Both the position numbers and the translations under genes were made by a program. A DNA stretch of 64,000 nt from the IMG/VR virus record IMGVR_UViG_3300020473_000015; one strand, written 5' to 3'. The first letter of the stretch is position 1, and each line of letters opens with the position of its first letter. The stretch is from a virus. Shown here piece after piece: positions 1,855 through 13,011 of the stretch. The notes under the pieces were generated by a model, which saw only the letters and a list, made by a program, of their open reading frames with translations, was not told the DNA's origin and did no database searches.

Positions 1855-3552
1855 ATGAAGCATTTATTTGAGAATTGGCGCCAATATGTTAACGAGGATG
1901 TTGTAGATTTAGCCTCTCGCCGCAAAAAATCCGAAAAAGAATTTGTTTTTACAGACGCAGAACTTAATAGCCTTAATGACGCAATTGCTAGAGTTATTGA
2001 TGGCGCTAAAAAAGTTCTTGGCGCTGATGGTGAAACTCCATTCTTAAGTCCAGATTCATTAGAAAAAATTGAACTTGCACAACCAATGAGAATGGTCGCA
2101 GAGCAAACAGATGAAGAGCTTGGAATAACCCCATTTCAATCTTCACAAGCCTCTCCAGAACAAATGGCCCTTAGAAAACAATATTATGGACCAGAAGGAG
2201 AATTGACCAAAGGTGGACCTAAAGCAGTCAGAGGCTTAGAAAAAGGTTTAGGTCAAATGTCAGCAGAGGAATTTGAAGAAGCGGGATATGTTATTAAAGT
2301 TCCTCAAAGTGTTTTAAATGATTTTGGACAATTGGTTGAAAGCACAAAAGAAACCGCAGGTTTGTTTGAAGAAGCTAGAGATTGGTATCACAACATACGT
2401 GGATTGCTCGATAGAGAGACAGAGAACGACCGTGACAGCGCTTTATTAGGTCTTTTGATTGCTACCTACTCTCCACGCGCTAAGTTCGCTCTAAACCTCG
2501 CTGAAGCCGTCTTTATGTACAAAGCTGTACAAAGAGATGCACAGAATAATCCAGAAGGCTTAAGACAATATCTAGAAACATTTCCTGGATCTGAAAAAAG
2601 AGAACCAGGATCTTTTAGGGGTTTTACGGGTGCGCACAAAGTACCAAATTTCGCCCTTAATCTAGTTGCACCAAACTTAGCTGGTGAAAAAAGCGAGTTT
2701 GGAGATATTGTTTATAATGATCTCTATGAGTGGAATTCTACAATTGATACTTGGATGATAGACGCTTTTTATCCTTCGCTAAGAAAAGCATCAACAGCAA
2801 AAGAATGGGAAGGCATAAAAGGTAAATTAATGTCTAATGTAGTTTCTTATCGATATATGGCTAGATTAGTTGCAAAAGAAGCAAAAAATTTAAATTTATT
2901 GCCACATGAACTTCAAGCTTTAATTTGGGTTGCATCTCAAATTAGACAAACCGGTGAAGCAGGTTTAGGAGTGACTACACAATTTGCTTTTGATCAAATT
3001 AGAGAAGCAATAACGAACATTGCTGAGATTAATAATGATCTGCGCGCCCTTAAAGATCTAGAAGAGAAAGATTGGCTAGGTACAATTATTAGTACAATTG
3101 ATGTTGATGGTTTTGAAGAAGCAGCGAAATATCTTTTAGGAATTAAAGATGAGAAAGGGAAAATAACTACTCCCGGAATTAGGAGTATTACTGCCAGTGG
3201 AAAGAAAGGCTCAATGTTTGACTATTTCCCTGCCCCAGAGAAAGTGGAAAAACCAAAAGGGCCCAAAAAGGCTAAAAAGGCTAGCGCTCCGAAAGAAAAA
3301 GTAATGAAGCCATATGAAAATCCTGAATATGGGGATTTAAATGCGCACTATGTAATGAATAGTGTTATTCAGATGCCAACTGGTAAATTTAATAACCTAT
3401 ATGACTCCATAACTCTTTATTTGGATCCTGAATTTTCTACAGATAAAGCTGTAGAGCATATTTTAGGAAGGTTTGATCCCGAAGCGAAAGCTTCGAAAGA
3501 TTATTTTAAAGAAAATAAAATAAGAGTATTTATCCGTAAACGTTTATTATAG
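1855..3552 (+). CDS. DUF7178-like (possible HhH-GPD-fold) protein with N-terminal LFENW..E motif, probably virion-associated
   Basis: 565 aa ORF. Motifs WYH, ATYSPR...N, HKVPNF, TIDTWM and QALIWV occur in the order seen in DUF7178-type phage proteins. Confidence 0.55.
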   Translation: MKHLFENWRQYVNEDVVDLASRRKKSEKEFVFTDAELNSLNDAIARVIDGAKKVLGADGETPFLSPDSLEKIELAQPMRMVAEQTDEELGITPFQSSQASPEQMALRKQYYGPEGELTKGGPKAVRGLEKGLGQMSAEEFEEAGYVIKVPQSVLNDFGQLVESTKETAGLFEEARDWYHNIRGLLDRETENDRDSALLGLLIATYSPRAKFALNLAEAVFMYKAVQRDAQNNPEGLRQYLETFPGSEKREPGSFRGFTGAHKVPNFALNLVAPNLAGEKSEFGDIVYNDLYEWNSTIDTWMIDAFYPSLRKASTAKEWEGIKGKLMSNVVSYRYMARLVAKEAKNLNLLPHELQALIWVASQIRQTGEAGLGVTTQFAFDQIREAITNIAEINNDLRALKDLEEKDWLGTIISTIDVDGFEEAAKYLLGIKDEKGKITTPGIRSITASGKKGSMFDYFPAPEKVEKPKGPKKAKKASAPKEKVMKPYENPEYGDLNAHYVMNSVIQMPTGKFNNLYDSITLYLDPEFSTDKAVEHILGRFDPEAKASKDYFKENKIRVFIRKRLL

Positions 3553-3593
3553 AGTATGTTATTATGTAAGCATTAGATTTCTTTGGAGGGAAA

Positions 3594-4589
3594 ATGTTTG
3601 CAGATATTATTGTTGACTTACAATATGGAGATTGCGGAAAAGGAAAAGTAACACACGCTCTGTGTAAGAGGGGAAACTACACACATGTTATTAGATACAA
3701 TGGGGGATGTAATGCTGGTCATACAATCTTCCACAATGGGCATAAGTTCGTTACTCACCATATCCCTGCAGGAGTTTTTTTCAATATTAAGTCCATTATT
3801 GGCTCTGGCTGTGTACTCAATGTTAGCCAGTTTTTTAAAGAAATAAAAGAATTAGAAGATGGTGGAATTAAGACAGAAGGTCTTATTTATGTTGCAAAAA
3901 ATGCTCATATTATTACACAAGATCACCTTGATGAAGACGGGAAAGATACAGCGATTGGGACAACTAAGAGAGGAAATGGACCAGCTTATCGCGATAAGTA
4001 TGATAGAAAAGGCTTGAGAGCAAAAGACATTCCAGAACTTCGACCATATTTAATTGATCTATATGAAGAACTTCATATAAAAAATAAAGACTCAATAGTA
4101 TTATTTGAAGGCGCTCAAGGTTTTGGATTAGATATTGATTGGGGTGATTATCCTTACGTAACTTCTTCCAATTGTATTTCCGCTGCAGCATGTATGAATG
4201 CAGTTCCTCCACGAAATATTCGTCATATTTGGGGGGTGGCTAAGGCATATGAAACATATGTTGGAGCAAAAGAGTTTCAACCAAAGGGCGAAATATTTAA
4301 TAAAATCCAAGAAGTTGGTGAAGAATATGGAGCAACTACGGGCAGAAAACGTCAAGTTAATTGGATGGATATAAATTTTTTAAAAAAAGCAATTCAAATA
4401 AATGGTGTAACACATTTAGTTTTTAATAAGATGGATGTATTAACAGAAATAGAAAGTTGGTCATTGGTTGAAAATGACACGATGAAACGCTTTGATTCTG
4501 AAAAAGGCTTTACAGAATTTATTTTAAAATATCTCGTCCCCCAGAGATTACATCAAGTTCATTTTTCCCGCCATAAAGATAAGATCTAA
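3594..4589 (+). CDS. purA: adenylosuccinate synthetase (short, 331 aa)
   Basis: QYGDCGKGK, GGCNAGHT, IGTTKRGNGPAY, EGAQG, YPYVTSS, GATTGRKR and NKMD motifs. SD GGAGG upstream. Confidence 0.95.
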   Translation: MFADIIVDLQYGDCGKGKVTHALCKRGNYTHVIRYNGGCNAGHTIFHNGHKFVTHHIPAGVFFNIKSIIGSGCVLNVSQFFKEIKELEDGGIKTEGLIYVAKNAHIITQDHLDEDGKDTAIGTTKRGNGPAYRDKYDRKGLRAKDIPELRPYLIDLYEELHIKNKDSIVLFEGAQGFGLDIDWGDYPYVTSSNCISAAACMNAVPPRNIRHIWGVAKAYETYVGAKEFQPKGEIFNKIQEVGEEYGATTGRKRQVNWMDINFLKKAIQINGVTHLVFNKMDVLTEIESWSLVENDTMKRFDSEKGFTEFILKYLVPQRLHQVHFSRHKDKI

Positions 4590-4597
4590 CTATTTAT
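4586..4597 (+). promoter_or_regulatory. putative phage late promoter (CTAACTATTTAT)
   Basis: Exact copy of the 1839-1850 12-mer, 5 nt before ATG 4603, with no room for an SD. Confidence 0.6.
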
Positions 4598-4602
4598 TGC
4601 GT

Positions 4603-7305
4603 ATGAATTACGTAATAAATAATAATACTTCTTACGACCTTCAAAAATTAGAACAACTAGCAAGAGAATTTCTCCCCTTCGCTCAAAAAAGAATGGGGTT
4701 TAATAGACCTCCTGTAATTAATTTTGATTCGGATGAAGAAAACTCTTTAAACCCTCTAGGCAAAACTGGATATTATAGCCCTTCAGAAATGGCTATTACT
4801 ATAATGGTCGACAACCGACATATTAAAGATATTTTAAGATCTTTATCTCATGAATTAGTACACCACAATCAAAACTGTCGTGGAGACTTTAATAGAGAAT
4901 TTTCTACTAATCCTGGTTATGCTCAAAATAACGAATTTTTAAGAGGAATGGAAGACGAGGCTTACAGAGAGGGAAACTTTTGTTTGCGAGATTGGGAAGA
5001 TGGTATTAAATTGTCTGAAACAAAGAAGAATCAGCTTAATGAGACTATTTATAAACGTACCTTCATAAAAGGAGAGGTTAGCATGTCAACAAAACAATGG
5101 AAAGACAAAGAACTAAACAGCTTATTAATGGAAAAATGGGGATACAAACTCCCAGAAGCAGAAGAAAAATTAGAAGAAGATCTTCAACCTGCAATGAATC
5201 TTAGAGATTATAGTACTGCAGAAAAAGTTTTAGGCGAAAACGACGAAGAAGATTCCGACGAAGAAGTGACAGTAGAAGAAAGCACTAACCCTCTAAGCGT
5301 TGAAAATCGCACAAAAAACAATAAACCCGTCAAAGAATCAAAAAAAAAAAGTCTAAATAAAACAACGCTCTCCTATAGTGAAAAAATCCTACAAGAAAAA
5401 TTAAACAATAGAGATCCATTCTTTCTCTTTAACAATTGGAAATCCAATGAACCAAGTCTTTTAAAGGAATCTGGTGCTGTTGGAAAAGTTGCTAGCGAGG
5501 CTTTCGAGTGGGCCATGAAAAAGTCTGGAGGGGTTTCTGATATTGTTCCAGGTCTTGGGAAGGTTGGGAGAACCCAGTTGACGAAAGTGGACAATGCGCG
5601 AATTGATAAAATTGTTGGAGAAGGATTTGACGAGGCCCTAAAAAAAGGCAATTTAGATAAGATCAGAAATATGTGGGATAGCACTAAAAGACAATTGACT
5701 GATGATGCTCTAAAAAGTGGGGCTGGTAAAGAATTGGTAGATGACATTGTGGAGGCCTTGTCAAAAGATGCCAATGAAGTTTTTAAGAAAGCAGTAAAAA
5801 CCGACGCATTTAAAGAGATAATGGCAAAAAGTATTGCCCAAAGGGCCGATGATATCGCCACTAACAAAGAACTGTTTGAGGTGGCCGCAAACAAAATTAA
5901 AAAAAGCAATATTAAGCTCTCAAACTTAGATGAGGCAGATAGAATAGCAGCAATAAGAGGAAAACTGGGTGATGACGCGGCCGATGCCCTTGGGGACGAT
6001 GGCTTAAAGGCACTTGCAAAATCTGCAGATGACGTTGCTGATGCTGCCGATGATGCTGCTAAGGCTGCCGATGATGCTGCTAAGGCTGCCGATGATGCTG
6101 CAGAAGAAGTTGGAGGGGCCGCTGGAAAAACAGATGAGATTGCAGATGCAGGGAAGGCGGCCCAAAAAGCCGCCGATGATATGATGGATCGCGCAATGAA
6201 GTCAGCGGACGAGGTTCTTAAAAAGGGTAGAGTAAGAGCAAGATTAGATGAAAAAATTAAGGGTTGGGCAAAAGATACAGGAACCAGTAAAAAGAATTTA
6301 CGTTGGAACACTGAAGAATTTTTAAAAGGAAATCCAGGTCTTCAAAGAATTAAAGAACTTAATAAGTTTACAGATGATCAGTGGGATGAATTCATTGAAC
6401 AATTAGCCAAAAAGGAAACAAGAGGAGTCATTACTCGGTTCAGACATATTCTTAGCCAATGTAAGGGGCTTGCGAGAACTCCAGCATGCCTTACCGCTGC
6501 CAGCGTCTTGGGGGTGTTTGGTGTAGGTGCTACTGATACGTTAACGAGTGGTGAGGGAGATATTGGTGGAGGCTCTGGTGGAGGTTCTGGTGGAGGTTCT
6601 GGTGGAGGTTCTGGTGGAGGTTCTGGTGGAGGTTCTGGTGGAGGCGTTGCACCGACAGAAAAACAAAAACTAAATGACCTTTGGAGCAGGTGCCAACAAT
6701 CTAGTGGATGGGACTCAGAAGCTTGTCGAATATATCTTAGAGCTAAAAGTAATTTTGACAATAATATTGAAATAAGGGAACCATGGCCAAGTAGTGGATC
6801 TGATCGTCGGGCTGGTCGACCAACGCCGCGTGGCAAATTACCAAAAGCTGGAGATGCAGTACCGGGAATTCCCGGTGAAGTCTGGCCACATAAAAATGAG
6901 TGGGTCGGCTGGAGTTCGATGAAAGTTATAAGAAGACTCAGAGAACTTGGATTTGAATATGATAGTAGTAAAACTGCTGGTGGTTGGTGGAGAGCTTTAC
7001 CTCGTATGCACCCTGCAAGAGTGGCATATAGAACGTTCTGGAAAAAGGGCGCGGGGGCAAGAAGAAGAAAGAAGAGAAGAGACCCTCAAGAGATTGCAGC
7101 AGAGATGGACTCCAGACCTGATGCATATTGGGCCTCCGGGAAGGCAAAACACATTGTACCAAGCGAGCTAAACCCCCGAGAAAGGGCGTTAGTTCAAAAC
7201 TATACAGGAAAAACTTTCCCTGCAGGACAATCTGTAAGAAGAAGTGACTGGGCTGAAGAATTGAAAGCTGCAAAAGCAGAACATAAGAGATTTAACCCCA
7301 AATAA
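4603..7305 (+). CDS. multi-module protein: N-terminal zincin-like metallopeptidase (HELVH), acidic linker, helical repeat region, GGGS linker and basic C-terminal domain
   Basis: LSHELVHHNQ followed by a downstream EDEAY. The ATG at 4603 is preferred over the TTG at 4597. Confidence 0.75.
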   Translation: MNYVINNNTSYDLQKLEQLAREFLPFAQKRMGFNRPPVINFDSDEENSLNPLGKTGYYSPSEMAITIMVDNRHIKDILRSLSHELVHHNQNCRGDFNREFSTNPGYAQNNEFLRGMEDEAYREGNFCLRDWEDGIKLSETKKNQLNETIYKRTFIKGEVSMSTKQWKDKELNSLLMEKWGYKLPEAEEKLEEDLQPAMNLRDYSTAEKVLGENDEEDSDEEVTVEESTNPLSVENRTKNNKPVKESKKKSLNKTTLSYSEKILQEKLNNRDPFFLFNNWKSNEPSLLKESGAVGKVASEAFEWAMKKSGGVSDIVPGLGKVGRTQLTKVDNARIDKIVGEGFDEALKKGNLDKIRNMWDSTKRQLTDDALKSGAGKELVDDIVEALSKDANEVFKKAVKTDAFKEIMAKSIAQRADDIATNKELFEVAANKIKKSNIKLSNLDEADRIAAIRGKLGDDAADALGDDGLKALAKSADDVADAADDAAKAADDAAKAADDAAEEVGGAAGKTDEIADAGKAAQKAADDMMDRAMKSADEVLKKGRVRARLDEKIKGWAKDTGTSKKNLRWNTEEFLKGNPGLQRIKELNKFTDDQWDEFIEQLAKKETRGVITRFRHILSQCKGLARTPACLTAASVLGVFGVGATDTLTSGEGDIGGGSGGGSGGGSGGGSGGGSGGGSGGGVAPTEKQKLNDLWSRCQQSSGWDSEACRIYLRAKSNFDNNIEIREPWPSSGSDRRAGRPTPRGKLPKAGDAVPGIPGEVWPHKNEWVGWSSMKVIRRLRELGFEYDSSKTAGGWWRALPRMHPARVAYRTFWKKGAGARRRKKRRDPQEIAAEMDSRPDAYWASGKAKHIVPSELNPRERALVQNYTGKTFPAGQSVRRSDWAEELKAAKAEHKRFNPK
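5044..5053 (+). promoter_or_regulatory. internal putative late promoter (ACTATTTATA) followed by a strong SD
   Basis: Motif at 5044-5053, AAAGGAGAGG at 5068-5077, in-frame ATG at 5083. Confidence 0.6.
5083..7305 (+). CDS. nested in-frame product (MSTKQWKDKELNSLLMEKWGY...) lacking the peptidase domain
   Basis: Has its own promoter-like motif and SD, and is in frame with 4603..7305 (offset 480 nt). Confidence 0.6.
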   Translation: MSTKQWKDKELNSLLMEKWGYKLPEAEEKLEEDLQPAMNLRDYSTAEKVLGENDEEDSDEEVTVEESTNPLSVENRTKNNKPVKESKKKSLNKTTLSYSEKILQEKLNNRDPFFLFNNWKSNEPSLLKESGAVGKVASEAFEWAMKKSGGVSDIVPGLGKVGRTQLTKVDNARIDKIVGEGFDEALKKGNLDKIRNMWDSTKRQLTDDALKSGAGKELVDDIVEALSKDANEVFKKAVKTDAFKEIMAKSIAQRADDIATNKELFEVAANKIKKSNIKLSNLDEADRIAAIRGKLGDDAADALGDDGLKALAKSADDVADAADDAAKAADDAAKAADDAAEEVGGAAGKTDEIADAGKAAQKAADDMMDRAMKSADEVLKKGRVRARLDEKIKGWAKDTGTSKKNLRWNTEEFLKGNPGLQRIKELNKFTDDQWDEFIEQLAKKETRGVITRFRHILSQCKGLARTPACLTAASVLGVFGVGATDTLTSGEGDIGGGSGGGSGGGSGGGSGGGSGGGSGGGVAPTEKQKLNDLWSRCQQSSGWDSEACRIYLRAKSNFDNNIEIREPWPSSGSDRRAGRPTPRGKLPKAGDAVPGIPGEVWPHKNEWVGWSSMKVIRRLRELGFEYDSSKTAGGWWRALPRMHPARVAYRTFWKKGAGARRRKKRRDPQEIAAEMDSRPDAYWASGKAKHIVPSELNPRERALVQNYTGKTFPAGQSVRRSDWAEELKAAKAEHKRFNPK
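5340..5350 (+). repeat. A11 homopolymer tract
   Basis: Eleven consecutive A bases, the longest run noticed in the window. Both shifted frames stop within a few codons. Confidence 0.9.
6043..6102 (+). repeat. 21-bp coding tandem repeat (AADDAAK x ~3)
   Basis: GCTGCCGATGATGCTGCTAAG twice, plus a third partial copy. Confidence 0.9.
6565..6645 (+). repeat. 12-bp coding tandem repeat (GGGS x6 + GGG)
   Basis: GGTGGAGG(T/C)TCT x6, followed by GGTGGAGGC. Confidence 0.95.
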
Positions 7306-7317
7306 GGATAATAGACA

Positions 7318-8541
7318 ATGAAAAATTCCAAAGATCAACTAACGGAACAAGAGATAAAAAAAATAATCAAAGAAGTTCTTTTAGAAAATCCTGAATTGTT
7401 AGAAGAGTGGGGCATGCCGTCTTGGAAGGATGTTAAGCGCACCTTTAAAAGAGCACAAAATGCGCCGCGATATTGGGCTGGAAGAGCCGCCAATAAAGTC
7501 TATGACTTGACTCAGGGCCCTGCGCCCGACTCAGTATTACAAAGAGGTGGTGGAAAGGTAGATATACCAGCGAGCAAAAAAGAACAAGAAGCTCGAAGAA
7601 AATATAAACTTGCGGACAAAAAATGCGCACAGACGGGCGATCCGAAAGATTGCGCAGAAGCGAAAAAGTTGTTAAAGAAAGCACACGCCATCGCTCAAGG
7701 CGATACGCGTAAAGGCGGGTTCGAGAGAACAGAATGGCACGGCAATTGGAAAGATATAGACATTGCAGGTGGAAAGGGGATAGGATGGCGCACTAGTGGT
7801 GGGTTTACCTCAAAGGACAGATATAAGGACGAGACAGAAGACACGCTACAGACCGCTAAAGCTGCAACTGCAATTGCTGCACTTGGAGGCGCAGGGATGG
7901 TTGCTAAACTTGCCCCGGGCATGCTAGCAAAAGGGCCAACCGTTGGAAAGATAATGTCTATTAATCCCATGCAACATGTATTTAGAAAAATGGGTATGAA
8001 TGAAAAATTTGCATCTATTGCAACACTTTTGTTTGATGCTGGTATTGGATTTTCTGAACAGTGGTTTTGCGGATTGAACATTAAAGGAGTTAGAATATAT
8101 GACGATATTTTAAAACATGTAGATCCAGTGCACTATCTTGCCATAATTCCATTGCAGAGGGCATGGCCTGGAGGCAACACAGGGCAATTATTCAGTAGAG
8201 ATATAAAATTTGGCGGGAATGTACCAATTGACTGGACTAATGAAAAGCAAGTGAATTCATTATATGACCATATCAATCAATCAATGATGAATGATGAAGA
8301 TCGAGAAGCTGCTAGAAACCTCAGAGACGATATTACACAGAAAGTTGCACAGTTAAATCGCCTTGCACAAGAAGAAAATATGTGCCCAAAGGCTTATGAA
8401 AAATTGATGCAAATTAAAGGCGCGCAAGAAGAATTAGCAAAAATTATTGGAAAGAATATAGAAAAAGAGACAGAAAAAAATCAGAAAGATTTAGATAAAA
8501 GAAAAAATATTCTGAAAAGACTGAAGGGCAATAACCAATAA
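7318..8541 (+). CDS. hypothetical protein, probably head-associated, with hydrophobic Ala/Gly segment
   Basis: 407 aa. N-terminal LTEQEIKKIIKEVLLE..LLEE motif and central AATAIAALGGAGMVAKLAPG. Confidence 0.7.
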   Translation: MKNSKDQLTEQEIKKIIKEVLLENPELLEEWGMPSWKDVKRTFKRAQNAPRYWAGRAANKVYDLTQGPAPDSVLQRGGGKVDIPASKKEQEARRKYKLADKKCAQTGDPKDCAEAKKLLKKAHAIAQGDTRKGGFERTEWHGNWKDIDIAGGKGIGWRTSGGFTSKDRYKDETEDTLQTAKAATAIAALGGAGMVAKLAPGMLAKGPTVGKIMSINPMQHVFRKMGMNEKFASIATLLFDAGIGFSEQWFCGLNIKGVRIYDDILKHVDPVHYLAIIPLQRAWPGGNTGQLFSRDIKFGGNVPIDWTNEKQVNSLYDHINQSMMNDEDREAARNLRDDITQKVAQLNRLAQEENMCPKAYEKLMQIKGAQEELAKIIGKNIEKETEKNQKDLDKRKNILKRLKGNNQ

Positions 8542-8550
8542 GAGGATAAA

Positions 8551-11334
8551 ATGGGCACATCAGGACACATGCAACACCCTTTTGACATTCCAAGTGTCAA
8601 AACAGGACAAGACTTAATAAATTATTTCGAGAGAATTGTAGAACATCTTTCTGCAAATCCCGGAAGTGTTAAATTCGATGGCATTAATGTAAGCTTTAAA
8701 TTAGTTGATGATGAATCCACTCCAACTGGAAAAGACTTCAGAATGGATCGTGGAACTTCCGCACCAGAATCAGTTATAGGAATGACGGCAGCAGATGCAT
8801 ATAAAAAGTGGCCTGAAGGTCATGGAATGCCCCCAGCAATAGATGAACTCTTAAAAATATTTAATGAAGCGCTGCCACTAATTGAGCCAGAATTAAAAGC
8901 TTTAGGAATGTGGGATGATCCTACAAAATATTTCAATACCGAATATATGAAGAAGGGCAGAACAAACGTTGTTGAATACGGTGAAAAAATATTAGCTCTT
9001 CATGGTGTAAATCAGTTTTATGAAAAGAAAGCACAAGCCCATAGAATTAAAAAAGGCATTGGAATGGATCGCCCAGGTTTAGAAAGACCAATTGATCCAG
9101 AAACTGGAAAGCCAACAAAACATGGAAGCACAGAAGTTCCTTATGATAGCGGAGTTTTACAATCTATTATTGAAAAAGTAAAACCAATTGCAGAACAACA
9201 TGAAGTTAGTTTAGTTGGAGATGTATCAACTGAGATATCTGCAGAAGTTGATTTTTCTGAAACGTTAAGTAAGCCATTTACGATAAATATGACAGACACA
9301 GAAAGCGAAACTCACTCTTTAGGCGAGTGGCTTTCTTCTGCTGTTAATCCTTTTGATGCTAAAGTACAAAAGCGTGATGGTAAACAAGCATGGGCAATAA
9401 GTAAAGAGATTTATTTTGCTGTTTTAAATGGTGTTCCCCTCATGGAAATGTTGGAGACTCCAGAAGACGTTAAAACGGCCATTAACGGCGCTCTTTTCAA
9501 TCATGCGACCCATGAGTTGGGTATGGACGTTAAACGCGCTTCAACAAGCTCTAAAGGCGGTTTAGAGGGTCATGAAGGTATTGTGATTAGAGGCATCGAT
9601 GATAGACCTGTGAAAGTCACTGGAGATTTTATTGTAAAAGGCGCTGGTGGAGCAATAAAGGATAAAATTAAAGCCTCCAAAGAAAAAGAGACTCTTGCTG
9701 AAATTGCAGATGAGCCGATAGATTTAGAATTTGAGATAGGAGATAATTTCGAAGAAGAGCCTGTTGAAAGAAAAATGGTCGCAATTTATCCTGGTAGATT
9801 TCAGCCTATGGGAAGACATCATGCTGAAGTCTATAAAGCTTTGCTAAATGATGAAAGATTTGATGATGTTTTCATATCGACGTCAGATAAAGTTGAGATG
9901 CCGAAGTCTCCATTCAATTTTAAAGAAAAGCAAGAAATTGCTGCTGGGCATGATATAGACCCATCTAAAATTGTACAAACTAAAAATCCCTACAATGCAG
10001 TTGAAATAACTAACAGTCTCGATCCTGAAACTGTTGTTGTTTATTTTGTGGGATGTAAAGATATGGATGCTGATCCAAACGTTTGTGATGGTACAAAACC
10101 AAGATTCCCTAGAGAAAGCTTGGGAGGAATGACTAAAAAAGGCACACCAAGATATTTTAGAGCTTTTGAGGATGAAGAAGATTTTAAAGGAGTGAAAGAT
10201 CATGCTTATATAGCTGTTGCTCCTCACATAGAAATTGAAATTCCAGAGCTTGGTGAGATGTCTGGTACGACAATAAGACAAGCGCTTCAAACAGCAGAGC
10301 CTGAAAAATTTGAAAGCATTATGGGATTCTATGATCCTGTTGTATATGATATGATTAAATCAAAGTTAAACTCTGAGCAAGAAGAATTACAGGAGGTTTC
10401 CCAGTTGCCTCTGGGTATCTTTCTTGGGTTAATTGAAGAAGTATTAAATGAAGTTGATCCAGTTGCGATGTATGGAGCGAATATTGCTAATGTTCCGGAA
10501 GTAGCATATAAATCTTATGGCACCAAGCAAGAACTAAATGAGATATACAGTGAAGATTATTCAGAAAAAGAATCTAGAGAAAATTTATTTGATGAACAAT
10601 ATCAAGAAGCTGTTGATGAAAGTGAATATAAACAAAAATATTATGATTTATTTATATCACAGCAAGATGCTAAGAAAATGTTGGATACATTAAATAATTC
10701 CTTCCCCGATTGGAAAGATCAAGAAGTATTACCTAGTGAATTTGACGATATCGAAGAAAAACTACATAAAGATGATTTGTGGAATGTTATCAAAGACACA
10801 AAATTATCAGATGGGGATATAACTTATAAAGAAATTTTGAATAAAAATGCTTTTGCCAACGCAACTAGGGAAAATGCACGATGGATTCAAGGCCCTAGAG
10901 AAATGCTACAAGACGAAGAAAAGATATATGGTGGGCGTGATCGAAATGCTCAAACTTATCCTTCTGAAAAAAGGGCTGTCTGGGCATGGAGCGTCGAAGG
11001 AAGAGGAAATTATTTAGGCTTTTCTCCAAAAGATATGGTAAAGGCCTCCAAAAGATACATTTATCCATATGCCAAATATTATATAAAATATTTTATGGAA
11101 GAATTATTTGAAGTTGTTGATGACACTATCAAAAATATGGATGCATATGCTAGCTTCCTATCTGATATATGGCATAAAATGAGTGATACCCCAATTGAGC
11201 AAAAAGAAGATTTAGAGGAAATATCTGCCATGGGAGCAGGAGCAGTAGAAGGTGGTGGCAGAACAGATGAACAAGAGGGGTTAATTAGAGAGGTTGAAGA
11301 CTATTTATATAAGCTATTAGGAGTCACAGAATGA
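8551..11334 (+). CDS. fusion of a ligase-fold (KxDG) nucleotidyltransferase domain, a HIGH-superfamily cytidylyltransferase-like domain and an acidic C-terminal module
   Basis: VKFDG (8668-8682), NTEY, HEGIVI (9571) and VKVTG match ligase motifs I, III, IV and V. IYPGRFQPMGRHH (9784-9822) and MSGTTIR match HUP-fold nucleotidyltransferase motifs. SD GAGGA. Confidence 0.75.
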   Translation: MGTSGHMQHPFDIPSVKTGQDLINYFERIVEHLSANPGSVKFDGINVSFKLVDDESTPTGKDFRMDRGTSAPESVIGMTAADAYKKWPEGHGMPPAIDELLKIFNEALPLIEPELKALGMWDDPTKYFNTEYMKKGRTNVVEYGEKILALHGVNQFYEKKAQAHRIKKGIGMDRPGLERPIDPETGKPTKHGSTEVPYDSGVLQSIIEKVKPIAEQHEVSLVGDVSTEISAEVDFSETLSKPFTINMTDTESETHSLGEWLSSAVNPFDAKVQKRDGKQAWAISKEIYFAVLNGVPLMEMLETPEDVKTAINGALFNHATHELGMDVKRASTSSKGGLEGHEGIVIRGIDDRPVKVTGDFIVKGAGGAIKDKIKASKEKETLAEIADEPIDLEFEIGDNFEEEPVERKMVAIYPGRFQPMGRHHAEVYKALLNDERFDDVFISTSDKVEMPKSPFNFKEKQEIAAGHDIDPSKIVQTKNPYNAVEITNSLDPETVVVYFVGCKDMDADPNVCDGTKPRFPRESLGGMTKKGTPRYFRAFEDEEDFKGVKDHAYIAVAPHIEIEIPELGEMSGTTIRQALQTAEPEKFESIMGFYDPVVYDMIKSKLNSEQEELQEVSQLPLGIFLGLIEEVLNEVDPVAMYGANIANVPEVAYKSYGTKQELNEIYSEDYSEKESRENLFDEQYQEAVDESEYKQKYYDLFISQQDAKKMLDTLNNSFPDWKDQEVLPSEFDDIEEKLHKDDLWNVIKDTKLSDGDITYKEILNKNAFANATRENARWIQGPREMLQDEEKIYGGRDRNAQTYPSEKRAVWAWSVEGRGNYLGFSPKDMVKASKRYIYPYAKYYIKYFMEELFEVVDDTIKNMDAYASFLSDIWHKMSDTPIEQKEDLEEISAMGAGAVEGGGRTDEQEGLIREVEDYLYKLLGVTE
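11300..11309 (+). promoter_or_regulatory. putative phage late promoter (ACTATTTATA)
   Basis: Lies inside the 3' end of the upstream gene, followed by SD AGGAG and ATG 11331. Confidence 0.6.
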
Positions 11335-12101
11335 ACCCACAAGAACAACAGTTAAGATTATTAATCCGTGAAGGCATGCGTATTGTTAAAAATAAAAGAG
11401 ATGCGCAGCTTTTAGAAGAGCAAAGATTGAGAAAAATTATTAGAGGCCTTATTTCTGAAGTATCTAAGAAAACTGCAGTTGCTGATAAAGTTGTTCATAA
11501 AAATACTGGTATAAATAAATTAGATGCACTTCTTAAACGCATCATTACTCAAATTGAAGATGCATACACTAATTTGTCTTCTAGTGAAGAAGAGAGAAAA
11601 TCATTTAGATACCACTTCTTAGTTAATTTTAAAAATCTGTTAGCTCCGGTCGATGCAAATAGAGATGCACCTAATAGAGAAAAGATGGCACTAGCAGAAC
11701 AAGATTTTAAAGTAGGTGTTGAACAGGATGATGTGACTAGCGAACCAGATCCAGATAAATTTCTACCCTCAAGACCTCAAGATATTGAAGCAGCAAAGGC
11801 TGAAGAGGAGGAGGAAGGAAAAACGTTTGAAAAATTAGACTCTTCCGACCCTTATGTTAGACAAGGCGCCGAAGCAGCAGAGACCGCTCTAAACGATGTA
11901 GAGACTCAAATTGTTAATTCATACGAGGGACTTATCGTACCAGAGGACGCAGCTGCATTCAAAGATTGGGGCTTAACTAATCTTAAATTGTACTTTGATA
12001 TGTTTGAAGATGAAATGACTAGTGATGTTGGAGAGGAACCAGAAAGTCCTGATTATCCTGCTGGAGATGATACTTTAAAAGAAGTAATATATGATATATA
12101 A
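11331..12101 (+). CDS. acidic hypothetical protein, probably head-associated
   Basis: 256 aa, with two N-terminal LRxxIR..E helices (QLRLLIRE, RLRKIIRGLISE). Confidence 0.75.
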   Translation: MNPQEQQLRLLIREGMRIVKNKRDAQLLEEQRLRKIIRGLISEVSKKTAVADKVVHKNTGINKLDALLKRIITQIEDAYTNLSSSEEERKSFRYHFLVNFKNLLAPVDANRDAPNREKMALAEQDFKVGVEQDDVTSEPDPDKFLPSRPQDIEAAKAEEEEEGKTFEKLDSSDPYVRQGAEAAETALNDVETQIVNSYEGLIVPEDAAAFKDWGLTNLKLYFDMFEDEMTSDVGEEPESPDYPAGDDTLKEVIYDI

Positions 12102-12197
12102 TATATAAGTATTTTTTATTAATTAATTTATTAATATTATTAGTAAGTTATAATTAACTATAAAAATATTATATCATATTCAATAATTAAATTTAAG
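12102..12197. other. extremely AT-rich intergenic island
   Basis: Hand count gives 7 G/C in 96 nt. Contains the inverted repeat AGTTA-TAAT-TAACT (12146-12159), which overlaps a TATAAT. Confidence 0.8.
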
Positions 12198-12560
12198 ATG
12201 GCTTGGAAAAAGAAAAGAAGACTTTCTGGTAAAAACGCTCACTATAGCGTATCTAAAGTTTTAAGAAAAAAACAATTATCCTCAGAAGAATTTGAACTGA
12301 TGTTGAATTCACTCTCCTTAGAAGATGTCATCGCACTCAAACTGGAATTATCTACAAAACCATTTGGTGGAAAATGTTTTGGTATACCTATTTGGCATTC
12401 CACCAGAGAGATCGTACAAGATGCCATGTTAAAAATGGCCCTTTCTACCACTAGATCTAAAAGAGAAGGGGCAAGATTTTTAGGTTTACTTCCTAATGAT
12501 TTCAGACATTTATTAAAAAAATATAATACAGAAAACTTTTTTGAAGAAAGCGATGAATAA
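12198..12560 (+). CDS. fis: Fis-like nucleoid/transcription regulator
   Basis: LEDVIALKL..FGG..IWHSTREIVQDAMLKMALSTTRSKREGARFLGL...LLKKY aligns by eye with the four helices and HTH of E. coli Fis ([46 protein letters not shown]...KLKKY). Confidence 0.65.
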   Translation: MAWKKKRRLSGKNAHYSVSKVLRKKQLSSEEFELMLNSLSLEDVIALKLELSTKPFGGKCFGIPIWHSTREIVQDAMLKMALSTTRSKREGARFLGLLPNDFRHLLKKYNTENFFEESDE

Positions 12561-12563
12561 TTA

Positions 12564-12592
12564 TTGCATATTGTTGTAATATATAATATAAT
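12564..12592 (+). promoter_or_regulatory. sigma70-type promoter of tmRNA
   Basis: TTGCAT (12564-12569), 17 nt spacer, TATAAT (12587-12592). Leaves a leader of about 12 nt before the mature 5' end. Confidence 0.8.
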
Positions 12593-12610
12593 AATGCAGT
12601 ACTTTGACAT

Positions 12611-12990
12611 GGGGGTGAAACGGTTTCGACAGAGAGTTGAGATATTGGCGTGCAAGACTGTGTAAGTAGCACAGTAAAAATACTTAAATTTTATAAATGC
12701 CAACGATAATGTTGAATTTGATTATGCACTAGCTGCTTAATCGGAAGTTTTTAGTAACTTTCTTAAGAAATACTAAACGTTTCCAGTTTTAAGAAAAACT
12801 GGTGGTACGCGTAGCGGGAATTAGATTATATAGGAAACTATATATTTTTTGGTAGCCAACACCTTAAGATTGGTAAATGGATACCCTGATTCGATCAGGT
12901 GGCTGATACTTGGGCGGTTAAGTGTCTATTCTTGTGAACGACGGCAATGTTAATGCTTTTTGGACTCGGGTTCGACTCCCGACACCTCCA
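12611..12990 (+). ncRNA. ssrA: tmRNA (one-piece)
   Basis: 5' GGGGGTGAAACGGTTTCGAC. 3' T-arm CGGGTTCGACTCCCG, then CACCTCC-A, giving an acceptor stem with the G3:U70 Ala identity pair. pk1 stems ACTGTG/CACAGT and AAGTA/TACTT. CCA is not encoded. Confidence 0.97.
12699..12740 (+). other. tmRNA tag reading frame ANDNVEFDYALAA*
   Basis: ATAAAT precedes the resume codon GCC. The tag ends YALAA-TAA, a canonical ClpXP-type degron. Confidence 0.95.
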
Positions 12991-13011
12991 CTAAATTAAA
13001 AAGGAAATAAT

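Follow-up and report, generated by a model that had tools for sequence, protein, structure and literature searches.

In bacteriophage T4 the prohead protease gp21 cuts after L/I-x-E and the Alt protein is trimmed at both ends (PMC9026906), and the T4 capsid-targeting sequence (CTS) reads MKTYQEFIAE (PMC8442874). A second described class is that of the polyvalent phage proteins, which have a mosaic, effector-rich architecture with many effector domains in one polypeptide (Iyer et al. 2017, PMC5512222; PMC9503650); a term search of PMC5512222 returned no module of ligase fold and no HIGH nucleotidyltransferase. The protein analysed here resembles both systems. It is encoded by an open reading frame (ORF) of 927 amino acids in a 64,000-nucleotide stretch of viral DNA (IMG/VR record IMGVR_UViG_3300020473_000015, hereafter the window), which comes from a marine metagenomic T4-like myophage with a baseplate wedge gene, PhoH, glycosyltransferases and a transfer-messenger RNA (tmRNA). 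An earlier sequence-only reading had described this gene as a ligase-fold nucleotidyltransferase fused to a HIGH-type nucleotidyltransferase, and had proposed RNA repair coupled with cofactor regeneration. In our view the ORF is best explained, with a probability of roughly 0.6, as a modular phage polyprotein, whose two enzymes would be delivered in the capsid after processing by a protease. Our confidence in the folds is higher than in the packaging and processing. The features of the gene are the following:

8551..11334, + strand: whole ORF, 927 amino acids, with a ligase-like domain, a linker, an NMNAT/PPAT-like domain, an acidic variable tail and a conserved C-terminal peptide
8554..9645, + strand: ligase-like covalent nucleotidyltransferase domain, residues 2-365
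8671..8682, + strand: motif I, KFDG at residue 41, with K41 as the predicted nucleotidyl-accepting lysine; K41, D43, G44 and N46 invariant
8935..9012, + strand: motif III (N129-x-E131) and the motif IIIa strand (L-H151-G); hhalign P=0.004-0.007 against T4 Rnl1
9571..9624, + strand: motif IV (E342-G343-I-V-I-R) and motif V (K355-V-T-G), E-to-K spacing of 13 residues
9694..9702, + strand: L382-A-E384, an L/I-x-E site at a conserved position of the inter-domain linker, candidate protease cut
9772..10386, + strand: HIGH-superfamily nucleotidylyltransferase domain (NMNAT/NaMNAT/PPAT-like), residues 408-612, assigned by AlphaFold2 model, Foldseek, profile and PHROG 395
9790..9822, + strand: PGRFQPMGRHH, residues 414-424, variant of the (H/T)xGH signature, H424 invariant
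10261..10278, + strand: SGTTIR, residues 571-576, second signature of the ISxTxxR type, R576 invariant
10429..10452, + strand: L-I-E-E630 and V-L-N-E634, double-hydrophobic-x-E sites just past the second domain, in 66/120 and 45/120 relatives
10453..11211, + strand: variable acidic tail, differing in length and content among relatives
11212..11256, + strand: L-E-E890 followed by I-S-A-M-G-A-G-A-V-E-G-G (residues 888-902), like the capsid-protein propeptide junction of the related genome G001
11281..11331, + strand: conserved C-terminal peptide, L-I-R-E914 followed by V-E-D-Y-L-Y-K-L-L-G, in 67/120 relatives
11331..12101, + strand: next ORF, 256 amino acids, with ATGA overlap with the target ORF

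All motifs quoted in the sequence-only reading (KFDG, NTEY, HEGIVI, VKV, PGRFQPMGRHH and SGTTIR) were found in one open frame, NTEY at residue 129 (nucleotides 8935-8946), HEGIVI at residue 341 (9571-9588) and VKV at residue 354 (9610 onward). They are not chance strings: the catalytic positions are invariant or at least 90% conserved in alignments of 31-60 relatives. The ORF does not end at 10380 but continues to 11334; the earlier range therefore covered the first 610 residues and dropped a tail of 315 residues.

The proposed ligase/capping fold of the N-terminal domain was upheld by the AlphaFold2 model, by VIA-align and by matches in BFVD, and it is highly probable that this domain belongs to the covalent nucleotidyltransferase superfamily. 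In the 31- and 60-sequence alignments K41, D43, G44 and N46 are invariant, N139 is invariant as well, and E131, H151, E342, G343 and K355 are at least 90% conserved, together with an N-terminal G5-H6-M7-x-H9-P10-F11 element (G-x-x-G-H6-M-x-H9-P-F-D12 in its full form). The model of the domain, built from the 60-sequence alignment, reached a pLDDT of 92.7 and a pTM of 0.87, and places E131 on strand 126-133, H151 on 146-157, E342/G343 on 343-346 and K355 on 354-356. When it was compared exhaustively with 48,161 chains by VIA-align, ranks 1-28 were occupied by covalent nucleotidyltransferases only. The closest folds were RNA ligases such as T4 Rnl1; next in rank stood Pmar-Lig, a DNA ligase of Prochlorococcus marinus, together with archaeal Rnl3, the editing ligase of trypanosomes, fungal Trl1 and T4 Rnl2, and after these came DNA ligases and capping enzymes. 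In BFVD, Foldseek matched the model to the RM378 RNA ligase (4.4e-4). The Foldseek search of the PDB gave nothing below E 0.04, with weak rows rich in ligases; the assignment rests on VIA-align and BFVD.

At the level of sequence the relationship is faint. In hhalign the N-domain family aligned with the Rnl1 family profile at motif III-IIIa alone, E131 with Rnl1 E159 (P 0.004-0.007, probability at most 8%), the comparison with the single T4 Rnl1 sequence gave E 0.43, and the global mode was without useful result. The 13 residues from the Glu of motif IV to the Lys of motif V are the same distance as in Rnl1 (E227 to K240). No Pfam model, including PF09511, PF09414, PF01068, PF01331 and PF01653, matched the 927-residue protein at E<1, and PF09414 was touched by only 2 of 60 relatives (E 0.046). 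The modelled structure thus suggests a very divergent member of the superfamily with a fold nearest to RNA ligases such as T4 Rnl1. An alpha/beta subdomain of about 170 residues (approximately 160-330) is inserted between motifs IIIa and IV, and the domain ends near residue 365, without an OB domain and without the Rnl1-type C-terminal domain, to be followed by the linker and the second enzyme.

The second domain was correctly recognised as a HIGH/HUP nucleotidylyltransferase of the NMNAT/PPAT branch, as its AlphaFold2 model, Foldseek and the family profile agree. The model has a pLDDT of 92.5, and its Foldseek matches in the PDB are NaMNAT, NMNAT and PPAT structures (5llt_A at 1.8e-5, then 1k4k, 3k9w, 2r5w and others, all with probability 1.0). 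The family profile found the NaMNAT 8aih (1.4e-4) and PPAT (2e-4) in the PDB, and PHROG 395 was matched at 1.5e-3. A single-sequence PDB search with the whole protein gave weak PPAT matches only (E 0.8), and PF01467 (CTP_transf_like) did not match the window protein, though it matched 21 of 60 relatives, at best with 6.9e-10. The signature reads G421-R-H-H424, where only the last His fits the canonical (H/T)xGH. About 55 of the 120 closest relatives share GxHH, as does the cultured Microcystis phage Mel-JY01 (G-I-H-H), and the other relatives, only about 22% identical in this domain, read G-G-F-K-P-P-H-x-G-H. The "non-canonical GRHH" is thus a true description of this clade, but it is a lineage variant and not a hallmark of the system, because relatives with the same ligase-like domain carry the canonical HxGH. 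Since P419, H424 and R576 are invariant in the alignment of the relatives, the second domain is probably an active enzyme.

The two domains form an evolutionary unit, fused in either order or encoded by neighbouring genes. Family hidden Markov models applied to 255 proteins found the ligase-like domain in front of the NMNAT/PPAT-like domain in 177, the reverse order in 35 and the ligase-like domain alone in 43. The reverse order occurs in Mel-JY01 and in a 484-kb uncultured phage, and on one contig, from a T4-like phage that also encodes UvsY and SegE, the domains are separate adjacent genes with an ATGA overlap. The whole protein has at least 972 homologues; when residues 1-400 were searched exhaustively, 379 clusters (50% identity) were obtained, of which 193 scored below 1e-30. 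The target protein is also encoded on Tara Oceans contigs that measure up to 180 kb. None of the relatives from NCBI sources has an informative name, a megablast of 22 kb against cultured phages gave no match, and the literature search returned no papers on DUF6267 (see below) or Mel-JY01. Relatives carry, among other inserts and appendages, SET, Amidase_2, GNAT, DUF192, DUF6934, DUF5661 and the anti-Thoeris protein Tad3. The tail of the window protein (residues 613-927) consists of 21% Asp and Glu, and in some relatives it is swapped for SET, Amidase_2 or other modules. In the metagenomic relative P0223 (1053 amino acids) the HIGH nucleotidyltransferase, DUF5661, Tad3 (PF25185, 2.6e-23) and the ligase-like domain stand in one polypeptide, which physically links the enzyme pair to a known anti-defence module. 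In the 72%-identical relative a single ORF (L007, ORF 10001-12844, 947 amino acids) joins the target orthologue in frame with the counterpart of the next ORF, and because of this the ORF at 11331..12101 is regarded as part of the same modular block.

A described but functionally unassigned family, DUF6267 (PF19782), shows the same plan. It has about 376 positions with H6/H9/D12 numbering from the N-terminus, a K-W-D-G motif I, an E-G-F-V motif IV and a single-Lys motif V, as well as an obligatory HIGH-nucleotidyltransferase partner, adjacent or fused, annotated as "cytidylyltransferase". It differs in motif III, which has Asp where the window family has Glu. Foldseek matched our N-domain model to the DUF6267 protein of S-PM2 in BFVD (1.3e-5), and the protein-language-model neighbours of the window protein carry DUF6267. 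S-SZBM1_141 is a member (3.7e-130), as are p138/p139 of S-PM2, and the family has at least 7,995 matches and is present in 464 cultured phage records, mostly cyanomyophages. The PF19782 model did not match the window protein, G001 or Mel-JY01, and hhalign between the families was not significant; by fold, layout and partner the N domain of the window protein is probably a sister family of DUF6267. As for the S-PM2 locus (AJ630128, 103025-104804), p138 and p139 are the halves of one DUF6267-plus-cytidylyltransferase gene, split by the original annotation, and the BFVD entry from the re-sequenced S-PM2 is a single protein of 591 amino acids.

The strongest contextual signal had been overlooked in the sequence-only reading, namely prohead-protease-type L/I-x-E junctions and T4-like capsid-targeting leaders, which suggest that the "fusion" could be a polyprotein to be cut up and packaged. 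In 61 of 65 proteins with a non-terminal ligase-like domain [LIV][LIV]-x-E directly precedes G-G-x-x-G-H-M, and another 154 proteins start with M-G-x-x-(x)-G-H-M; since the latter begin with M-G, removal of the Met gives the same mature N-terminus as at the hhxE-GG junctions. L/I/V/M-x-E is present in 143 of 169 linkers between the ligase-like and the following NMNAT/PPAT-like domain, and close relatives carry TLAE, VISE, LISE or TLTE at the position of E384. In the window protein conserved L/I-x-E sites stand at the module boundaries (E384, E629/630/634, E890 and E914), and the C-terminal peptide with E914 is a candidate C-terminal propeptide or targeting element. Short leaders of the family (MISFKNYTLLQE, MNTFEEYFLLE, MITFKQYLLNE) resemble the T4 CTS, and T4-like leaders are found on a separately encoded second domain (MQTFKQFVHE) and on a neighbouring small ORF (MSSFEKLIAE) as well.

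Among the related genomes G001 (190.6 kb, complete, CheckV 100%) encodes a target orthologue with 72% identity and a Peptidase_S77 (6e-25), and both G001 and G002 encode Peptidase_S77 and gp23 homologues. The junction in the gp23-type capsid protein of G001 reads L-L-R-E followed by A-S-T-M-A-G-G-D-V-E-G; the hexapeptide resembling it after E890 is the sole instance among the window ORFs of at least 80 amino acids, and it recurs in the family. The capsid protein of a close relative has its nearest counterparts in Flavobacterium phage immuto, Mel-JY01 and Rhodothermus phage RM378. Furthermore, the S-SZBM1 cytidylyltransferase (S-SZBM1_140), with the leader MRFRQFIIE, matches the NMNAT/PPAT-like part of the family profile (8.5e-12), and this protein was detected with 2 peptides in CsCl-purified virions by liquid chromatography-mass spectrometry (PMC9146016). 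S-CREM2 ORF154, a virion-associated protein annotated as cytidylyltransferase (PMC10665884), can be likened to the second domain by name only.

Based on these regularities the polyprotein would be made late and incorporated into the prohead, where a head protease of the T4 gp21 type would cut after L/I-x-E at E384, E629/630/634, E890 and E914. The enzymes might then travel inside the head and reach the host cell together with the phage DNA, as Alt and the internal proteins of T4 do. K41 is expected to attack the alpha-phosphate of ATP (or NAD+), forming an enzyme-AMP intermediate, and the AMP could be passed to a 5'-phosphate end, which would then be sealed; the second domain would use ATP to adenylylate a phosphorylated small molecule. 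As a counter-defence, the two enzymes would come into play as soon as infection begins, with nucleic-acid ends and/or adenylylated cofactors as their most plausible targets.

Several observations weigh against this explanation. The window protein has no N-terminal leader and starts with MGTSGHM. L/I-x-E is a short motif, and the likeness of the tail to the capsid junction is a post hoc observation, the capsid protein being that of the 72% relative and not of the window genome. S-SZBM1_141, the ligase-like partner of the virion protein, is not among the 30 listed virion proteins of S-SZBM1. In cyanomyophages the homologous gene pair stands among replication genes, not head genes. Finally, motif V has one lysine, not two.

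The best surviving alternative, which we regard as unlikely, is close to the sequence-only reading: a cytoplasmic, unprocessed bifunctional enzyme, in which an RNA-repair ligase for host-cleaved tRNA or mRNA would be combined with regeneration of NAD+ or another cofactor, and in which L/I-x-E would be structural. The nearest fold is indeed that of a tRNA-repair ligase, T4 Rnl1, the N domain lacks an OB domain as RNA ligases do, the second domain is NMNAT-like, and the Tad3 anti-Thoeris module fused in one relative ties the family to NAD-related conflicts. The nearby tmRNA, which had been brought up as a further hint, is real (12611-12991; ARAGORN, Rfam 112.3 bits) and lies 1.3 kb from the end of the ORF, but its tie to the enzyme pair is one of proximity only. 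An unprocessed enzyme leaves unexplained why hhxE-GG stands before 61 of 65 non-terminal N domains and why 154 proteins start at that very Gly, and the same is true for the CTS-like leaders on separately encoded domains and for the detection of a homologue in virions. Additionally, there is no PNK, 2H, Tpt1 or Nampt among the Pfam annotations of the genes within about 10 kb, these genes give no pointer to a pathway, and the tRNA-binding C-terminal domain of the Rnl1 type is absent.

Still less probable is that the ligase-like domain is a nick-sealing DNA ligase of phage replication or recombination, with NAD+ or another dinucleotide from its partner as possible AMP donor, although NAD-dependent ligases do use the product of NMNAT. 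Neither G001 nor G002 has a match to PF01068, PF01653, PF09511 or PF09414 (the PF09511 search having been run without a positive control match), therefore no ligase-fold protein other than the target-type one is detectable in them. The genes for DUF6267 and for the cytidylyltransferase of S-PM2 and S-SZBM1 are located beside uvsX, gp41, mazG and nrdB. For these two reasons, the lack of another recognisable ligase in G001/G002 and the replication-gene setting in cyanomyophages, a nick-sealing or replication role stays alive. It is at odds with the missing OB fold or other known DNA-clamping domain, with the fusion of the family to effector-type modules (SET, GNAT, Amidase_2, Tad3), and with leaders and protease sites for which a replication enzyme would have no use; the fold is also nearest to RNA ligases, though a DNA ligase follows within 1 Z unit.

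That the ligase-like domain is catalytically dead, a structural or scaffold-binding module that brings the adenylyltransferase into the head along with other cargo, would agree with its being shared more often than any other module among very diverse architectures, with a motif V without second lysine and with the unusual large insert, but K41, D43 and G44 are invariant and E131, E342/G343 and K355 near-invariant across the 379 clusters of 50% identity, so that an active site is to be expected rather than a scaffold, and we consider this explanation very improbable.

A broader but only tentative proposal can also be made. Marine T4-like phages, with the abundant cyanomyophages included by way of DUF6267, might carry in their capsids a hitherto unrecognised injected pair composed of a new clade of lysine-nucleotidyl transferases which need a precise N-terminus, left either by the head protease or by loss of the Met, and of an NMNAT-like enzyme making or recycling the nucleotide donor; right after injection such a pair could, for example, seal nucleic-acid ends or restore NAD-type cofactors against immediate defences.

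Concerning the genomic surroundings, the gene lies in a tightly packed block on the + strand (1855-12101). The ORF at 1855 starts with M-K-H-L-F-E-N-W-R-Q-Y-V-N-E, and the leader M-K-x-L-F-E-N-W-R-x-Y-x-x-E is present on three L007 proteins; it looks like the capsid-targeting leader of this phage lineage itself, marking a block of putative head-cargo genes. The T4 late-promoter motif TATAAATA was also considered: 18 sites were counted against 10 expected, and because none is placed upstream of the + strand block genes they are uninformative. Within the block, the 902-residue protein at 4597-7305 combines a zincin-like HExxH module (H-E-L-V-H-H) with a (GGS)n run and a long region rich in Ala, Asp and Lys, and one 907-residue ORF of Flavobacterium phage immuto unites the same HExxH module with a pol-beta-like and a HIGH nucleotidyltransferase. 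A short adenylosuccinate synthetase of 331 amino acids (3594-4589) is PurZ-like by its PHROGs label; this reading was rejected, as the protein matches PurA much better (2e-59) than it matches PurZ structures (1e-18 to 9e-12), and it is probably a PurA-type auxiliary gene and not evidence of a 2-aminoadenine genome. The tmRNA encodes the tag peptide ANDNVEFDYALAA, and its position downstream of a 120-residue ORF is conserved in related contigs. Farther away, three giant ORFs (1345, 2484 and 3125 amino acids) stand beside baseplate wedge genes at 36580-62288 and are presumably tail fibre or host-recognition proteins; a PHROG scan of the 1345-residue one, the only one of the three scanned, gave no match. 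The ORF running off the 5' end (2-1270) has Cys-rich repeats and a von Willebrand A-like D-x-S-x-S stretch, which is unusual for a phage, and its full version of 710 amino acids on another contig has a weak match of the MopE-type Cu-binding kind.

The enzyme superfamily, the type of the partner enzyme and the kind of delivery architecture were known before; what is new is their combination and its abundance. The pair is very common in ocean viromes, and neither the window family nor DUF6267 has an assigned function, so a ligase-superfamily identity with K41 as catalytic lysine offers testable chemistry for a large set of genes called "hypothetical" or "cytidylyltransferase". The regularities of the junctions and leaders provide a simple and testable rule by which head cargo could be recognised among marine-phage proteins, and such a rule would extend the paradigm of the T4 internal proteins and Alt to environmental phages and to nucleotide-transfer enzymes. 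A ligase-fold enzyme without OB or other known specificity domain might be of interest also as a tool.

It should be emphasized how far the family departs from its known relatives. Compared with T4 Rnl1 and the covalent nucleotidyltransferase superfamily the window domain represents a divergent, unannotated clade, seen by no Pfam ligase model. It differs from Rnl1 in the insert of about 170 residues between motifs IIIa and IV, in the single Lys of motif V and in the absence of the C-terminal tRNA domain and of OB, and from the known ligases in general in having H6-x-x-H9-x-x-D12 at a fixed distance from the mature N-terminus. The second domain shares with NadD, NadM, archaeal NMNAT and CoaD the Rossmann-type HUP fold, G-x-F-x-P…H and S-x-T-x-x-R; unlike the NMNAT/PPAT enzymes it has G-R-H-H, with the first His lost and Gly changed to His, and its identity to the solved structures is only 11-19%. 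In its mosaic, effector-rich architecture the family agrees with the polyvalent proteins. With T4 IPI-III and Alt it has in common the CTS-like leaders ending in L/I-x-E, the cleavage-type junctions and the trimming signals at both ends; the window protein stands apart from them in being without an N-terminal leader and in that its packaging is inferred from the sequence.

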